From the NCBI RefSeq assembly GCF_003334305.1, contig NZ_QOWS01000049.1: a stretch of DNA of 6,386 bases. One strand, written 5' to 3'. The stretch is from Escherichia coli (GTDB taxonomy: Bacteria > Pseudomonadota > Gammaproteobacteria > Enterobacterales > Enterobacteriaceae). Under the pieces are notes generated by a model. The model had not been told where the DNA came from and ran no database searches. It was given only the letters and a program-made list of their open reading frames with translations. The position numbers and the translations under genes were made by a program. How positions within the stretch are numbered: position 1 is the stretch's first letter; each line of letters opens with the position of its first letter. This document shows positions 812 through 6,386 of this stretch, one piece after another.

Positions 812-837
812 TTGGACATTCAGGTAATTTCGTCCAG
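812..837. repeat. Dyad-symmetric motif copy 1 (TTGGACATTCAGGTAATTTCGTCCAG)
   Basis: Inverted repeat TGGAC (813-817) / GTCCA (832-836) around a 14-bp spacer. It is homologous to the copies at 1710, 2259 and 5447. It lies in the divergent promoter region between the 73..735 ORF and the 905..1099 ORF. Confidence 0.6.
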
Positions 838-1131: not shown

Positions 1132-1164
1132 AATTCCCTGGCTCACCTGGACAGCCAGGGAATT
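1132..1164. terminator. Perfect 12-bp stem / 9-nt loop hairpin between convergent ORFs; possible bidirectional terminator or RNA stability element (no U tract)
   Basis: AATTCCCTGGCT (1132-1143) pairs perfectly with AGCCAGGGAATT (1153-1164). The loop CACCTGGAC carries the CACCTGGACA core seen in the dyad repeats. No clear U run follows on either strand, so the terminator call is weak. Confidence 0.35.
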
Positions 1165-1174
1165 CTGCCCAGCG

Positions 1175-1709: not shown

Positions 1710-1735
1710 CTGGACGTACAGCATTTTCTGTCCAG
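1710..1735. repeat. Dyad-symmetric motif copy 2 (CTGGACGTACAGCATTTTCTGTCCAG)
   Basis: Perfect inverted repeat CTGGAC (1710-1715) / GTCCAG (1730-1735) with a 14-bp spacer. It matches the copy at 5447-5472 at about 22 of 26 positions. It sits just downstream of the candidate -10 for the 1772..2221 ORF. Confidence 0.6.
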
Positions 1736-2258: not shown

Positions 2259-2284
2259 CTGGACATTCAGGTAAAAAAGTCCAA
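2259..2284. repeat. Dyad-symmetric motif copy 3 (CTGGACATTCAGGTAAAAAAGTCCAA), fused to the terminator stem
   Basis: TGGAC (2260-2264) / GTCCA (2279-2283). The right half-site is also the 5' arm of the terminator hairpin at 2278-2304. Confidence 0.55.
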
Positions 2285-2358
2285 CTGGTGAGGTTGGGCT
2301 TTTTGGCTTTCCGGTTCTGTTGGTGGCTATGACCGGAGAAAATTGCTCTACACCTAAC
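2273..2358 (-). ncRNA. Candidate small RNA, orphan paralog of the antisense RNA at 4727..4814
   Basis: Homologous to 4727-4814 along its length: the same terminator architecture, the same internal hairpin (TCCGGT ... ACCGGA), and a conserved -10 (TAAAAT on the minus strand, plus-strand 2365-2370). The predicted 5' seed is different (GUAGAGCAAUUUUCUCC versus GUAGAGUGACUUCCUCC). No adjacent toxin gene, and no target found in the window. Confidence 0.4.
2278..2304. terminator. Bidirectional rho-independent terminator (A-tract / 8-bp stem / 7-nt loop / T-tract)
   Basis: AGTCCAAC (2278-2285) pairs with GTTGGGCT (2293-2300), with one G-U pair. The loop is TGGTGAG. A5 lies upstream and T5 downstream, so it reads as stem plus U-tract on both strands. 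It serves the 1772..2221 ORF on the plus strand and the sRNA candidate on the minus strand. Confidence 0.6.
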
Positions 2359-2837: not shown

Positions 2838-4340
2838 ATGAAGAAATTTTATCAATTTAGGGATGAACAGCGAAAGGAGCTTGAACAACATGATTTTTAT
2901 AGTTTGATTTCTTCAGATTGTATAGCGTTGAAAGACAAACTATTATTTGCTCCTGTTATGGCTCATTTCATAATGAACTTCAGAGACATGAATAAATGGG
3001 TTATCAGGTTTGATAACAATGATAATGAATATAAATCTGTTATAAACGGTGGAACAATCGAGGATGAAACACATTCAAGATTGTTTCTGGAAGACTGGAG
3101 GAAACTATATATAGATGACAAACTTAACTGGAAAGCAAGTGATGTTATATACTGGTTGTTTATTAGTCGAGAAATGGAGTGTTTCCGAAAATTTGGTATT
3201 GATTTTATGAGACTTTGTGTAGATGATGGAGGAGACCCAATACTTCGATATTCTCACTCCGAGTCAGGAGAAACTTGCGGTAATATATTCTTTTCAAGAA
3301 TTAGTCCTATTGCTGATCAAGTTGCCAATCATTTGGGAATATCACTCCGTTATTTTGGAACATTTCACCTTAATCTTGAAAATGGACATGTATGGAAGTC
3401 AGAAGGTGTTTTTGAAAATATAGAGTTGTCACCAGATTCTTATAAGAAAATGGCTACTCTATCAAAGAGAATGTTTGATATATTTGAAGGAATTCATGAC
3501 TCTTTTTATAATTACCTGTCCAGTTATGTTCTTAATGGAAGTCATCCGTCATTTTTTGAATCATTACCTGTAGGGAAAAATGTTGCACCTATATACCCTG
3601 AATTTGTGATAGAAAACAAAAGCCATAACGATGGTAGACATATTGAACATATAAACAATTACCTGGAAAAAATATCGAGTCATGAGTTCTTTAAATGGCT
3701 GGTTAACACCTCAATAGACCCTCAATTGAAATTGAAAAGTTTCATACCTCTTTGGATTGTTGATATTATGGGGTATAGAGATATTAATAAATATGTTTTT
3801 ACATATGAACAGCCTGAATCAGAAAGTGAAAAGATTATAAATGATTATGCATTACACTTGTCAGAGCATAGCCGTTTATTTTATCATGACTGGAAGTCAC
3901 TTCAACTTGATGATATGTTACGTTGGAGTGCCAGTGATACTCTTGAGTTTATTTTTCTTAATTCAGATATGGATATGCATAGAGAAAATATAGTTAAGTT
4001 TTCTTTGTTCGGATTAAAACACAGAGATCCTGTTATCAGGTTCTGGTTTATGATGATACTGGAGTTAAGTGGAAAAGAATTTTTCTCTCATGTTGGAGAT
4101 ATAGCTTTACAGGTGGAAAGTAAATATAATATTTATCTCCCATATTTATGTGGACGCCATGCAACAGAAAATGAGCATGAAGCATATAATAATATGTATG
4201 AGCATTTTATGGTAAAGGAACTTAGCCCTGAACAAAGTGATCTAATAATACAAATTACAGACATGGTTATGCGGTCATTATTGAATAATTTGGATATCTC
4301 ATATCGATATGTAGTAAATAATTTATTGGCAGCTCGTTAG
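2838..4340 (+). CDS. Hypothetical 500-aa protein made of two homologous ~220-aa halves; function unknown
   Basis: Long ORF with a strong AGGAG Shine-Dalgarno site, its own AT-rich promoter region and its own terminator. The two halves share ETHSRLFLEDWRKLYIDDKLNWKASD versus EHSRLFYHDWKSLQLDDMLRWSASD, FRDMNKWV versus YRDINKYV, and a later ELSP motif. No signal peptide or TM helix is apparent. Codon usage is strongly AT-biased compared with the flanking sequence. Confidence 0.8.
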   Translation: MKKFYQFRDEQRKELEQHDFYSLISSDCIALKDKLLFAPVMAHFIMNFRDMNKWVIRFDNNDNEYKSVINGGTIEDETHSRLFLEDWRKLYIDDKLNWKASDVIYWLFISREMECFRKFGIDFMRLCVDDGGDPILRYSHSESGETCGNIFFSRISPIADQVANHLGISLRYFGTFHLNLENGHVWKSEGVFENIELSPDSYKKMATLSKRMFDIFEGIHDSFYNYLSSYVLNGSHPSFFESLPVGKNVAPIYPEFVIENKSHNDGRHIEHINNYLEKISSHEFFKWLVNTSIDPQLKLKSFIPLWIVDIMGYRDINKYVFTYEQPESESEKIINDYALHLSEHSRLFYHDWKSLQLDDMLRWSASDTLEFIFLNSDMDMHRENIVKFSLFGLKHRDPVIRFWFMMILELSGKEFFSHVGDIALQVESKYNIYLPYLCGRHATENEHEAYNNMYEHFMVKELSPEQSDLIIQITDMVMRSLLNNLDISYRYVVNNLLAAR

Positions 4341-4404: not shown

Positions 4405-4504
4405 AATGCCCAGAACAGGGGGAATTTCCATTCATGCCCAAAAAATATTTTGATGTCCTCTCGCCAATTCTCGCGCTCAGTCCTTCCTGAAAAACCTCAG
4501 AATT

Positions 4505-4645
4505 CACGTAGCGCATCGCCGCTACTGCATCCATCAAAAAAAATGACAGCTTTTTTAATCATCTTGTGTTACTCAACTTACTGAAAAATGTGATTTATGA
4601 AAATGCCGCCGTCGGCATCAAGCAGTTGGCCAGCGCAACCGGCTG
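4505..4645. repeat. Repeat block U, copy A (about 140-bp core; homologous to 5765-5905)
   Basis: Shared anchors, by eye about 75% identity: TTCACGTAGCG, TACTG-ATCCATCAA, AATGAC, CTACTGAAAAAT, GGC-ACAGCATC. The reading frames are not conserved between the two copies, so it is probably non-coding. Confidence 0.55.
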
Positions 4646-4726
4646 CATCGACCGCAACAAAAAAACTGAAAGAGAAAGCCCCTCAAATGAGGGAGAAAAA
4701 AAGGAAGTGCAGTCAACGAGAGGCGT

Positions 4727-4814
4727 AAAAAACCCGACTGGTGAGGTCGGGTTTTAATACGGTTCCGGTTCTGAGTTGGTGGCTCTGACCGGAGGAAGTC
4801 ACTCTACACCTAAC
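4727..4814 (-). ncRNA. Candidate antisense small RNA (type I antitoxin-like), divergent from the 31-aa peptide gene
   Basis: Minus-strand promoter: TTGCAA (4844-4849), 17-bp spacer, TAAAAT (plus-strand 4821-4826). The predicted start is near 4814. The terminator is stem CCCGAC (4733-4738) / GTCGGG (4746-4751) with loop TGGTGAG and a U6 run on the minus strand. The first 24 nt (complement of 4791-4814) pair with plus-strand 5026-5049 in the peptide mRNA leader (23 Watson-Crick pairs plus one G-U). Confidence 0.5.
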
Positions 4815-4909: not shown

Positions 4910-5025
4910 CATGAAGTTAGCCGTGTGGTGTGGCTTCTTCCTCTGCCCTTCCCGTTTATGCAGGTATGAACGATTTTAAAGTCCTGGCTGAACAAACAGG
5001 TGGTGCTGTGTTTAGTGCTCTGGCA

Positions 5026-5049
5026 GGAGGAAGTCACTCTGCACCTAAC
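5026..5049 (+). promoter_or_regulatory. Predicted antisense RNA target site in the peptide mRNA leader
   Basis: GGAGGAAGTCACTCTGCACCTAAC (5026-5049) differs at one position (A to G) from plus-strand 4791-4814, so it is complementary to the 5' end of the minus-strand RNA with one G-U wobble. Confidence 0.5.
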
Positions 5050-5221: not shown

Positions 5222-5446
5222 TGACAGCGGAAACGTAACTAAGGACAGGAAGTGAACCGCTTCCTGCCCTTTAACATACTGTGATATTTTTCAAAAAAAC
5301 TCACCAATATTCTCCTCGGCAGAAATGACATAACTCACTGTAAAATAACAAATCATCTAAACGCCAGCTTTGTATTGAGCGCGTTGGCCAACGCCTTTAT
5401 CAGCTGCGACCGCACCAGATAATTTGAATAAGATTTCCCGCATCAC

Positions 5447-5472
5447 CTGGACATACAGGTTATTCTGTCCAT
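5447..5472. repeat. Dyad-symmetric motif copy 4 (CTGGACATACAGGTTATTCTGTCCAT)
   Basis: TGGACA (5449-5454) / TGTCCA (5466-5471), with an inner dyad ACCTG ... CAGGT. It lies in the spacer between the two peptide units. Confidence 0.6.
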
Positions 5473-5764
5473 ACCTCATTAGTTACAACATTCACGCGTT
5501 CTGTTCCTTTATCCGGTGCCCTGTTCCAGTATATGTGCCCATATCCTGGGTTATTCAGGATAACCGCTTCCTTTTCGCCCTGTCCTGTCGTTCATATCCC
5601 CCTGGACAAAAATGCATTATCGGAAAAAATGTCCAAAATTTTTTTGGTGATCGGAATTTTTGTTGTCGGACGCACCTCTTCTTCAGGTCATAATTGCTGA
5701 CACATCCCAAAAAACAGGAGCGGAGATTTAAAAATTGAGTCACTTACCCGCCAAAATTTTCCAG

Positions 5765-5905
5765 ATTTCACGTAGCGTACCGTCGATACTGTATCCATCA
5801 ACAAATGACTATTTTTTGAATGTGTCATTTCCTGTAACCTACTGAAAAATATCAGTGAATGACAATATCGGCGACAGCATCGGAGCTGATAGCCAGTTTC
5901 CTGAA
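5765..5905. repeat. Repeat block U, copy B (homologous to 4505-4645)
   Basis: Same anchors as copy A. It is preceded by a candidate -10 (CATAAT, 5689-5694) and followed by the hairpin at 5994-6032. Confidence 0.55.
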
Positions 5906-5993
5906 TGCATATGGCCAGAACAGTAAATTTGAACCAGGTTCTCACGTCACCAGGCGACGTGTCTGGGAAACTGGTGAACAACAGGCACAGAAA

Positions 5994-6032
5994 AGCCCAA
6001 CTTTATGGGGGTCAGTTCAGTGAGGTTGGGCT
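5994..6032. terminator. Hairpin homologous to the sRNA terminators (8-bp stem, enlarged 23-nt loop), directly upstream of the second peptide gene
   Basis: AGCCCAAC (5994-6001) pairs perfectly with GTTGGGCT (6025-6032). The loop ends in TCAGTGAG, compared with TGGTGAG in the other copies. On the plus strand, A4 lies upstream and no U tract follows. Confidence 0.45.
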
Positions 6033-6043
6033 AAGAGAAACGA

Positions 6044-6139
6044 ATGATTAACCTGTTAATCATCATTCTCAGGGATGTGGTCGCCGTTGCAAACGCGCGG
6101 ATTGCAGTTCTGGAACTGATTCGCCAGTTCATCGTTTGA
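6044..6139 (+). CDS. Second copy of the 31-aa peptide (MINLLIIILRDVVAVANARIAVLELIRQFIV), possibly degenerate
   Basis: ATG at 6044 with a weaker ribosome-binding site (AAGAG). It differs from copy 1 at 7 nt (V8I, A11D, L19R, I22V, D31V, one synonymous), and two of these put charged residues in the hydrophobic core. It lacks the sRNA, promoter and leader block present upstream of copy 1. Confidence 0.45.
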   Translation: MINLLIIILRDVVAVANARIAVLELIRQFIV

Positions 6140-6309
6140 TGACAGCGGAAACGTAACTCAGGACAGGAAGTTCCAAATAGCTCCCAGCCAGCATATGTAA
6201 TTTTCAAAGGGGCAGTTGTTAACTCTGTAATAACGCCATGTAAAGTATTCCTGCCCCCTCCATGATCCTCCATAGTATTTCTTGAGTTAATTTTCAAAAA
6301 GCTTCTGAT

Positions 6310-6386
6310 GGTGATGCTGCCAACTTACTGATTTAGTGTATGATGGTGTTTTTGAGGTGCTCCAGTGGCTTCTGTTTCTATCAGCT
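6310..6386 (+). mobile_element. IS1 insertion sequence, left end (element continues beyond the window)
   Basis: GGTGATGCTGCCAACTTACTGATTTAGTGTATGATGGTGTTTTTGAGGTGCTCCAGTGGCTTCTGTTTCTATCAGCT matches the IS1 left inverted repeat and the insA 5' region as I recall them. It is in the same orientation as the IS1 fragment at 1-77. Confidence 0.9.
6365..6386 (+). CDS. insA: IS1 InsA, N-terminal fragment (GTG start; continues beyond the window)
   Basis: GTG GCT TCT GTT TCT ATC AGC translates to (M)ASVSIS, the InsA N-terminus as I recall it. Confidence 0.7.

Follow-up and report, generated by a model that had tools for sequence, protein, structure and literature searches.

The stretch of Escherichia coli DNA described here (the window, 6,386 nucleotides analyzed at full length) lies between two IS1 copies. 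Over its full length it matches plasmid pECOS88 of E. coli S88 and related ColV-type IncF plasmids at 100.0% identity (rounded), and a single base differs between the window and the S88 copy (L001) in the segment compared. Five copies of a 24-bp recombination site (TGGACATnCAGGTnAnnnnnGTCCA), all in the same orientation, partition the window into gene cassettes. One of these sites is preceded by dqlB-1, a gene for a DinQ-like type I toxin, and by a conserved non-coding element containing a perfect 14-bp palindrome (GCGTTGGCCAACGC); it is followed by a Ter-like sequence and the remnant of a ResD-family tyrosine recombinase gene (Table 1). This palindrome is the subject of the present analysis. 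It falls outside the toxin-antitoxin module, and the dqlB mRNA does not terminate at it; instead, it is located in a conserved non-coding arm that flanks a ResD-family crossover site on the left, an arrangement found in IncX-type backbones and in cassette arrays derived from them. The palindrome itself is ordinary, its surroundings are more informative, and it is at most a candidate protein-binding site.

A preliminary description of this DNA reported an exact inverted repeat without a spacer, situated about 160 nt after the stop codon of the first peptide gene and followed by CTTTAT. Each of these observations is borne out by the sequence and its coordinates, as GCGTTGGCCAACGC is a spacer-less perfect inverted repeat that starts 160 nt past the last base of the dqlB-1 stop codon (31 codons) and has CTTTAT directly 3' of it. 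The palindrome stops at 14 bp because the flanking bases (5380 and 5395) are both C. The same description judged the feature weak on its own, and this caution was correct: perfect palindromes of 14 bp or longer appear in 41% of 500 dinucleotide-preserving shuffles of the window (mean of 0.52 per shuffle), and the occurrence of GCGTTGGCCAACGC alone is therefore not significant. A low chance expectation applies to the exact 14-mer only and not to palindromes generally. The window also contains a longer palindrome, a perfect 16-bp sequence (TTACCGTGCACGGTAA, 73–88) that spans the junction between the end of IS1 (1–77) and a truncated nuclease gene.

The DNA in which the palindrome is embedded has been compared with its relatives in other plasmids. 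In 33-kb IncX plasmids, the stretch immediately preceding the gene for a 274-aa recombinase is 82–87% identical to positions 5291–5760. By blastn, 485 PLSDB plasmids contain the element; their hosts include Escherichia, Salmonella, Klebsiella, Enterobacter, Proteus, and further genera. The full element comprises, in order, a 16-nt motif (CAGATTTCACGTAGCG), the block TAACTCACTGTAAAACAACAAATCA, CGCCGG, the palindrome region, CAGCTGCGACCG, CCAG..TTTGAAYAAGATT, and a variable G+C-rich spacer. A crossover site is recognizable after the spacer in 38 of the 45 contexts fetched; exceptions are the IncX8 loci, where a Ter site comes directly after the element, and the IncX4 loci, where the site is degenerate. 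The 16-nt motif that usually heads the element (the 'A' motif) is replaced in the window by the end of the dqlB module, and in IncX plasmids the element follows other genes, such as a Hok-family gene. On some contigs and plasmids the element is multi-copy, with a single orientation throughout, and the window itself holds two diverged paralogous copies. Homology between the element and the recombinase gene was considered and rejected, as only the motif CAGATTTCACGTAGCG, which in the gene is located within the 5' end, is common to both. The possibility that this motif is a replication iteron was likewise rejected, the iterons of an IncX plasmid being unrelated to it. The 9-mer TTTCACGTA occurs five times in a whole IncX plasmid, compared with roughly 0.3 occurrences expected by our own estimate.

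Homologues of the element were gathered from plasmids, genomes, and metagenomes using a pattern anchored only on the two blocks that flank the palindrome; because of this anchoring, the palindrome itself is unbiased in the homologue set. The set consists of 37 distinct true homologues, all with 99 nt between the anchors, and one further relative (L008/L029) has 98 nt. Analysis of these sequences indicates that the element is non-coding: each of the six frames is interrupted by stop codons in 12 to 37 of the 37 homologues, and the substitutions have no 3-base periodicity. Some IncX records do carry annotated ORFs of 63–130 aa ('hypothetical proteins') over the homologous stretch, which would be expected if the element encoded a small protein. 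However, these ORFs vary in start, end, and length among records, and hand translation of L002 and a Proteus sequence gives approximately 42% protein identity compared with 68% DNA identity, so that a coding function for the element is highly improbable.

The palindrome could also be one segment of an unannotated unit that spans the element, such as a small non-coding RNA, a promoter or leader directed towards the crossover site, or a sequence resembling an origin of transfer. Consistent with such a unit, the approximately 100 nt upstream of the palindrome are 80–100% conserved, free of indels, and non-coding, and several copies may be present per plasmid in a single orientation. Furthermore, the long spacers contain a plus-strand stem-loop whose arms differ between L028 and L019 and are still complementary when read by eye. 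The remaining evidence makes this explanation unlikely. Promoter and terminator scans predict neither promoter-like nor terminator-like sites within the element, and an Rfam scan of the window (E up to 1) returned only the two AgrB matches, with none in the element. RNAalifold identified no consensus fold on either strand for 37 homologues of the 99-nt block or 33 homologues of the 190-nt element, with trivial energies in each case, and a search for transcript data across the element returned none.

Examination of the 14-mer across the homologues reveals a dyad-symmetric conserved core, CG-N-TGGCCA-N-C. Conservation reaches at least about 90% at 14-mer positions 2, 3, 5–10, and 12 (C, G, T, G, G, C, C, A, C), while no columns in the entire 99-nt block vary more than positions 4 and 11. 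The number of parsimony steps along the 14-mer is 9, 2, 0, 7, 0, 0, 1 in the left half and 2, 1, 0, 8, 2, 6, 8 in the right half (column mean 3.5), such that the conserved positions take 0–2 steps each and positions 1, 4, 11, 13, and 14 take 6–9. The substitution steps are mirror-correlated about the center of the palindrome with r = 0.91, ranking first among the 64 possible centers, and the permutation P value is 0.002 for this pre-specified center. Symmetric constraint of this kind is not accompanied by covariation between paired bases. The 4/11 pair is Watson-Crick in 22 of the 37 homologues and is T-T, A-A, A-G, or C-A in the remaining 15; a hand count on the tree finds it complementary in about 5 of 13 clades, approximately what base frequencies alone predict. 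The outer pairs are also frequently broken, pair 1/14 in 13–22 sequences and pair 2/13 in 11, and the length of the perfect palindrome varies from 0 to 11 pairs across the homologues. Compensatory evolution was suggested by the first three relatives, which have T-A, C-G, and A-T at positions 4/11, and this suggestion dissolved when 37 homologues were placed on the tree. Symmetric constraint without base-pair covariation is suggestive of a site read by a protein dimer, in which each half contributes G-x-TGG and positions 4/11 and the ends are free.

The palindrome in the window is thus a locally perfect form of the core CG-N-TGGCCA-N-C. In the best explanation of these findings, the core would be recognized at the level of DNA by a dimeric protein, each monomer of which would read G..TGG and ignore the 4/11 pair and the outermost pairs. 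Such a protein could assist or regulate recombination, or could affect transcription across the arm, and the perfect 14-bp symmetry in the window would be a lineage-specific accident on top of the core. This proposal is a tentative one, and the core is best described as a possible target of a dimeric protein with a role in recombination or expression at the arm. With regard to the preliminary description, which had suggested a protein-binding site, the conserved dyad-symmetric core and the mirror-symmetric substitution rates lend the idea modest support.

Several observations weigh against a dimer-binding site. The permutation P value rises to 0.15 if any center is allowed, and the rate at which the complete 14-mer changes (46 steps) is the median one for the element, at rank 34 of 64 windows. 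Additionally, the neighbor-joining tree on which the step counts depend was built from 77 columns of recombining sequences, among which L053 is a visible recombinant. Within the lineage of the window (93–97% identity), three of four variants differ within the 14-mer by one uncompensated change, which in two cases falls in the TGGCCA center, and changes in this lineage affect 3 of 56 sites in the palindrome and 15 of 340 outside it, the same rate as in the flanks. All occurrences of GNTGGCCANC in 418 kb of related loci and a whole IncX plasmid were in copies of the element; because the core does not recur elsewhere, there is no support of the kind expected for a regulon. The lack of predicted promoter-like or terminator-like sites within the element, described above, is also unfavorable, as is the spacing between the core and the crossover site, which ranges from 13 to about 140 nt and is constant only in IncX backbones. 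This variable spacing argues against a fixed recombination architecture, IncX backbones excepted. Known operators and sites (ArgR, IHF, LexA, sigma-54, CpxR, TyrR, matS, and ColE1 bom/nic) were compared by eye, and nothing convincing emerged. To our knowledge, no cognate binding protein has been identified.

Many of the same results would be expected if the palindrome were incidental and had no function of its own, its center being conserved as part of a spacer or for an unrelated reason and its complementary outer bases having arisen, in this lineage, either accidentally or when template switching 'corrected' a quasi-palindrome. The frequency of palindromes of this length in shuffled sequence, the range of palindrome lengths among homologues, the chance-level complementarity of the 4/11 pair, the uncompensated changes in close relatives at the rate of the flanks, the median rate of the 14-mer as a whole, and the truncation of the adjoining recombinase in this plasmid are all in line with this explanation. 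It does not account well for the core CG-N-TGGCCA-N-C being among the best-conserved blocks of the element or for the strikingly mirror-symmetric rates obtained with a fixed center. Furthermore, the single TGGCCA in a complete 33.8-kb IncX plasmid is at this position. Taken together, a palindrome without function is nearly as likely as a site for a dimeric protein.

The preliminary description also raised the possibility that the palindrome forms a short hairpin marking the 3' end of the peptide mRNA. This possibility was not upheld. The palindrome can form a stem of at most 5 bp with a 4-nt loop, with a predicted energy of -6.7 kcal/mol as RNA (z = -0.03) and -4.2 kcal/mol as DNA. It is followed by CUUUAU, which supplies three U's and no U-tract, was not called in a scan of the window for terminator-like sequences, and loses its pairing in relatives. 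A terminator for dqlB-1 is found 110 nt upstream of the palindrome, in the form of a hairpin orthologous to the dinQ terminator that folds at -17.2 kcal/mol (z = -4.8 relative to shuffles). Comparison of this hairpin with K-12 dinQ reveals that both stem arms have changed and still pair (GGACAGGAAG...CTTCCTGCCC in the window, GGGCTAAGAG...CTCTTAGCCC in K-12). Homology to K-12 dinQ continues through the stop codon and the hairpin and ends at TTTAACAT, about position 5276. The published work on dinQ places the putative terminator in a short interval immediately past the gene. Matches in other E. coli records follow the same boundary: only 172 of the 1,491 records matching 5222–5760 cover at least 80% of it, and 27 of 40 records in an evenly drawn sample of those listed match 5222/5229–5276 only. 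A role for the palindrome as an intrinsic (Rho-independent) terminator of dqlB or dinQ is ruled out by its energy, the lack of a U-tract, its position, and this homology. Membership of the palindrome in the dqlB/agrB module was also rejected, as homology to the module ends near 5276 and IncX loci carry the element without dqlB.

A hairpin could instead act in other ways. In RNA, it could serve as a processing signal or a read-through terminator, for dqlB or for some other transcript of the plus strand; in DNA, it could be a structure that forms in the transferred or lagging strand. Favorable evidence comes from an IncX1-like lineage (L003, L006, L007, and others; 2586–2607 in L006, for example), in which the palindrome is extended to 22 bp (GATCGCGCTGGCCAGCGCGATC), both arms include a GATC (Dam) site, and the predicted fold has an energy of -17.4 kcal/mol. 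The occurrence of three different complementary pairs at positions 4/11 in different lineages would also fit a selected helix. However, the 22-bp form folds only marginally better than shuffled sequences (z = -1.8), and the extension is not stably kept, as shown by three uncompensated changes that sister sequences carry in the left arm. The weak fold of the window form, its three U's, the negative terminator scan, the missing consensus helix on either strand, the non-complementary 4/11 states at chance frequency, the breakage of outer pairs in most lineages, and the dqlB terminator upstream together make a functional hairpin, in RNA or in single-stranded DNA, quite unlikely.

The arm that carries the core is adjacent to a site at which plasmids appear to have exchanged DNA. 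IncX plasmids with an empty site (L002, one copy of the 24-bp sequence) and an occupied site (L003, two copies) differ by exactly one cassette, and the L003 cassette, which encodes a 64-aa protein, is also present between the sites at 813 and 1148 of the window. The left flank of the window, consisting of dqlB followed by the element and its palindrome, is joined to five different right flanks in other sequences, with the breakpoints inside the 24-bp site. Metagenomic contigs contain arrays of at least six sites in one orientation, and some of their cassettes are common with the window. IncX plasmids and metagenomic arrays contain identical cassettes as well as empty sites, which points to site-specific cassette insertion by a ResD-family recombinase, and by these comparisons the 24-bp sequence behaves as a crossover site.

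The recombinase that would act at this site is represented in the window by its first 14 codons. An intact relative (L002, 274 aa) is 47% identical to the ResD protein of the F plasmid over 232 aa (E = 4e-61), contains the Pfam Phage_integrase catalytic domain, and does not reach any curated NCBIfam cut-off. Source records annotate this protein merely as 'recombinase' or 'resolvase', and relatives at about 44–47% identity are found in more than 5,000 enterobacterial plasmids. In the window the gene is cut exactly at CAGATTTCACGTAGCG (5762–5777), a motif that also heads full copies of the element (4498–4513), as if a deletion had occurred between two copies of the motif. Because the recombinase gene is reduced to 14 codons, the palindrome site is probably a relic in this plasmid. 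The region between the crossover site and the recombinase gene contains further TGGACA/TGTCCA half-sites, and promoter scans identify a promoter-like TGGACA-16-AAAAAT at 5603–5630.

Table 1. Features of the window, with positions numbered from its first nucleotide.
Feature	Position	Strand	Basis and remarks
Recombination site, copy 1 of array	813–836	+	Repeats, arrays, cassette comparison
Recombination site, copy 2	1148–1171	+	Repeats, arrays, cassette comparison
Recombination site, copy 3	1711–1734	+	Repeat family D9, arrays
Recombination site, copy 4	2260–2283	+	Repeats, Rfam, arrays; abuts 3' end of second AgrB-like gene
Second AgrB match	2271–2357	-	Rfam, 46 bits
Diverged paralogous copy 1 of element	4498–4700	+	Repeats D7 and D10; keeps GTTGGCCAGCG at 4625–4635, palindromic only over TGGCCA
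AgrB-like antitoxin sRNA	4725–4813	-	Rfam RF02891, 64 bits
dqlB-1, DinQ-like type I toxin, 31 aa	5126–5221	+	ORF and annotation of matching plasmids
dqlB-1 terminator hairpin, dinQ terminator orthologue	5241–5271	+	Terminator scan, folding, K-12 alignment
Upstream part of element (TCAAAAAAACTCACCAATATT...TAACTC)	5290–5336	+	Alignments
Element block, 99 nt (ACTGTAAAA to TTTGAATAAGATT), contains palindrome	5337–5435	+	No indels in 37 homologues
Perfect 14-bp palindrome GCGTTGGCCAACGC	5381–5394	none	Sequence read; chance level as a palindrome; weak hairpin
Dyad-symmetric conserved core CG-N-TGGCCA-N-C	5382–5392	none	37 homologues; both N (5384, 5391) hypervariable
24-bp recombination (crossover) site TGGACATACAGGTTATTCTGTCCA	5448–5471	+	Repeat families D3/D4/D9; empty vs occupied site; flank swaps
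Conserved region, crossover site to recombinase gene	5472–5734	+	Nearly invariant in three-sequence alignment
Ter-like site, exact match to Tus-binding Ter core ATGTTGTAACTAA	5479–5491	-	Predicted from sequence; preceded by G-A as in consensus
Recombinase gene remnant, first 14 codons, ResD-family tyrosine recombinase	5735–5777	+	Alignment; joined at CAGATTTCACGTAGCG to element copy 3
Diverged paralogous copy 3 of element	5762–5960	+	Repeats, alignment; core degenerate (GATAGCCAGT)
dqlB-2, second DinQ-like toxin gene	6044–6139		DinQ-like annotation

The Ter-like site is located 8 bp from the crossover site and is kept in the same place in IncX loci. The consensus applied to it is the established one for Ter sites, and the known Tus-Ter polarity would presumably cause this site to stop replication forks arriving from the recombinase side. 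R6K, the IncX prototype, has Tus-dependent terminus sites. A paper on R6K mentions terR and does not mention the region of the element and crossover site. A second Ter site was not found in the sequences searched.

Regarding the cassettes, many open directly after the crossover site with a conserved promoter-like sequence that ends in an extended -10 (..CTGGCCTGGTATAAT), as at 837–900 in the window and in L003, L024, L026, L031, and L036; given these starts, the cassettes may carry their own promoter. On the minus strand at 73–747 is a PD-(D/E)XK nuclease gene that IS1 has truncated, with a match to the PADLOC model Aga_Helical-REase (E = 4e-23). A complete relative of this gene is a cassette between two sites in L028, and it may be an anti-phage defense cassette. 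The largest cassette of the window contains an A+T-rich ORF of 500 aa (2838–4340), located between the two AgrB genes, that has no NCBIfam or PADLOC match. Read along the minus strand, a perfect tandem repeat consisting of four 9-nt units (CGCCTTTAA, 2394–2429) directly precedes the second AgrB-like gene.

The dqlB module is complete in the window, comprising the AgrB sRNA, a target repeat complementary to AgrB in the dqlB-1 5' UTR/leader (5002–5049, repeat family D2), the toxin ORF, and the terminator. Just upstream of the target repeat, CTGGCTGAACAAACAG (4984–4999) fits the LexA-box pattern CTG-N10-CAG, which agrees with SOS control of dinQ. The second toxin gene, dqlB-2, is without a normal leader carrying the AgrB target, and its Shine-Dalgarno region is joined to an apparent 3' stem-loop from an AgrB gene, its loop enlarged (about 5993–6025); promoter and antisense control are therefore probably absent. 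The terminator hairpin of dqlB-2 is apparently split by an insertion of approximately 75–80 nt between its stem arms (GGACAGGAAG ... TTCCTGCCCC; 6160–6260), and IS1 begins at 6310. DqlB/AgrB has been demonstrated experimentally to be a plasmid addiction module on pOXA-48, and it has been reported as common in IncX plasmids (53%) and sporadic in IncF plasmids (4%).

The palindrome itself matters little, as the toxin gene does not use it as a signal and it may be functionless. The stretch around it is of wider interest, as this part of a ColV-type virulence plasmid appears to be a relic of an IncX-style recombination platform, composed of repeated crossover sites that bound cassettes, a Ter-like site, a truncated ResD-family recombinase gene, and the conserved non-coding arm. 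If the arm and its dyad core were needed for recombination, this would help to explain how small accessory modules, including the dqlB/agrB addiction module, move between plasmid families, and the arm and core would constitute a concrete cis-element. A more far-reaching and doubtful extension is that the core is the site of an accessory or regulatory factor in an undescribed cassette-capture platform of enterobacterial plasmids, in which a ResD-family recombinase operates beside a Tus/Ter replication-arrest site. The recombinase would insert and shuffle promoter-bearing cassettes, including toxin-antitoxin and nuclease-like genes, at repeated 24-bp sites, and the palindrome arm would mark or control the primary site in a manner comparable to the attI side in integrons or the accessory sequences in cer. 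Searches of an incomplete library by sequence and keyword found no literature description of the 24-bp site, of its arrays of small cassettes near Ter, or of the palindrome-bearing arm.

Two of the systems with which the locus can be compared, the dqlB/agrB module and resolution systems of the ResD/rfsF type, are already known. In relation to the dinQ-agrAB and dqlB-agrB modules, the palindrome lies 160 nt 3' of dqlB and yet is outside the module. A second comparison is with cassette arrays. Similar to integrons and the pdif modules of Acinetobacter, tyrosine-recombinase sites bound the cassettes in one orientation next to a recombinase gene, and the same cassettes appear in different arrays. 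In contrast to integrons, the recombinase scores 54.6 bits against TIGR02249 (cut-off 265) and 39 against NF011946 (cut-off 435), and the sites are conserved as a 24-nt sequence rather than as a folded structure of the attC type (for the site at 5448, the single-stranded DNA fold has z = -0.37 relative to shuffles). Identity with an integron (intI/attI/attC) was consequently rejected, given scores far below the cut-offs and no attC-type structure. Further differences are that many of the cassettes have their own promoter-like sequence and that the sites are not dif-like.

The locus also resembles ResD/rfsF of plasmid F, as well as the rfsF-ResD and rfsF-RsdB systems of IncI1, IncR, and pSLT plasmids. 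The recombinase relative shares 47% identity with F ResD, and the site is upstream of the recombinase gene in each. The promoter-like sequence that overlaps a half-site here would allow autoregulation, a further likeness to ResD/rfsF. Exchange of gene sets at rfsF has been reported between IncI1, IncR, and IncF plasmids. The resemblance is one of recombinase and layout. Differences from ResD/rfsF are that the site here can be present in six or more copies, all oriented alike, which delimit cassettes of one to several genes, that it stands beside a Ter-like site and is preceded by an approximately 200-nt conserved non-coding element with the palindrome, and that the recombinase gene of the window is a 14-codon remnant.

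Finally, sites at which plasmids are resolved by Xer recombination have adjoining sites for accessory proteins, namely the ArgR box in ColE1 cer and the ArcA site in pSC101 psi. The core does not match the ARG box or the other consensus sequences considered, the recombinase here is ResD-like rather than XerCD, and outside IncX backbones the spacing of the core is variable, unlike cer and psi. Similar to these accessory sites, however, the palindrome core is a short dyad-type motif in non-coding DNA, 70–90 bp to one side of the crossover site of a tyrosine recombinase. This likeness, although one of resemblance only, provides a model for how the palindrome core might work.

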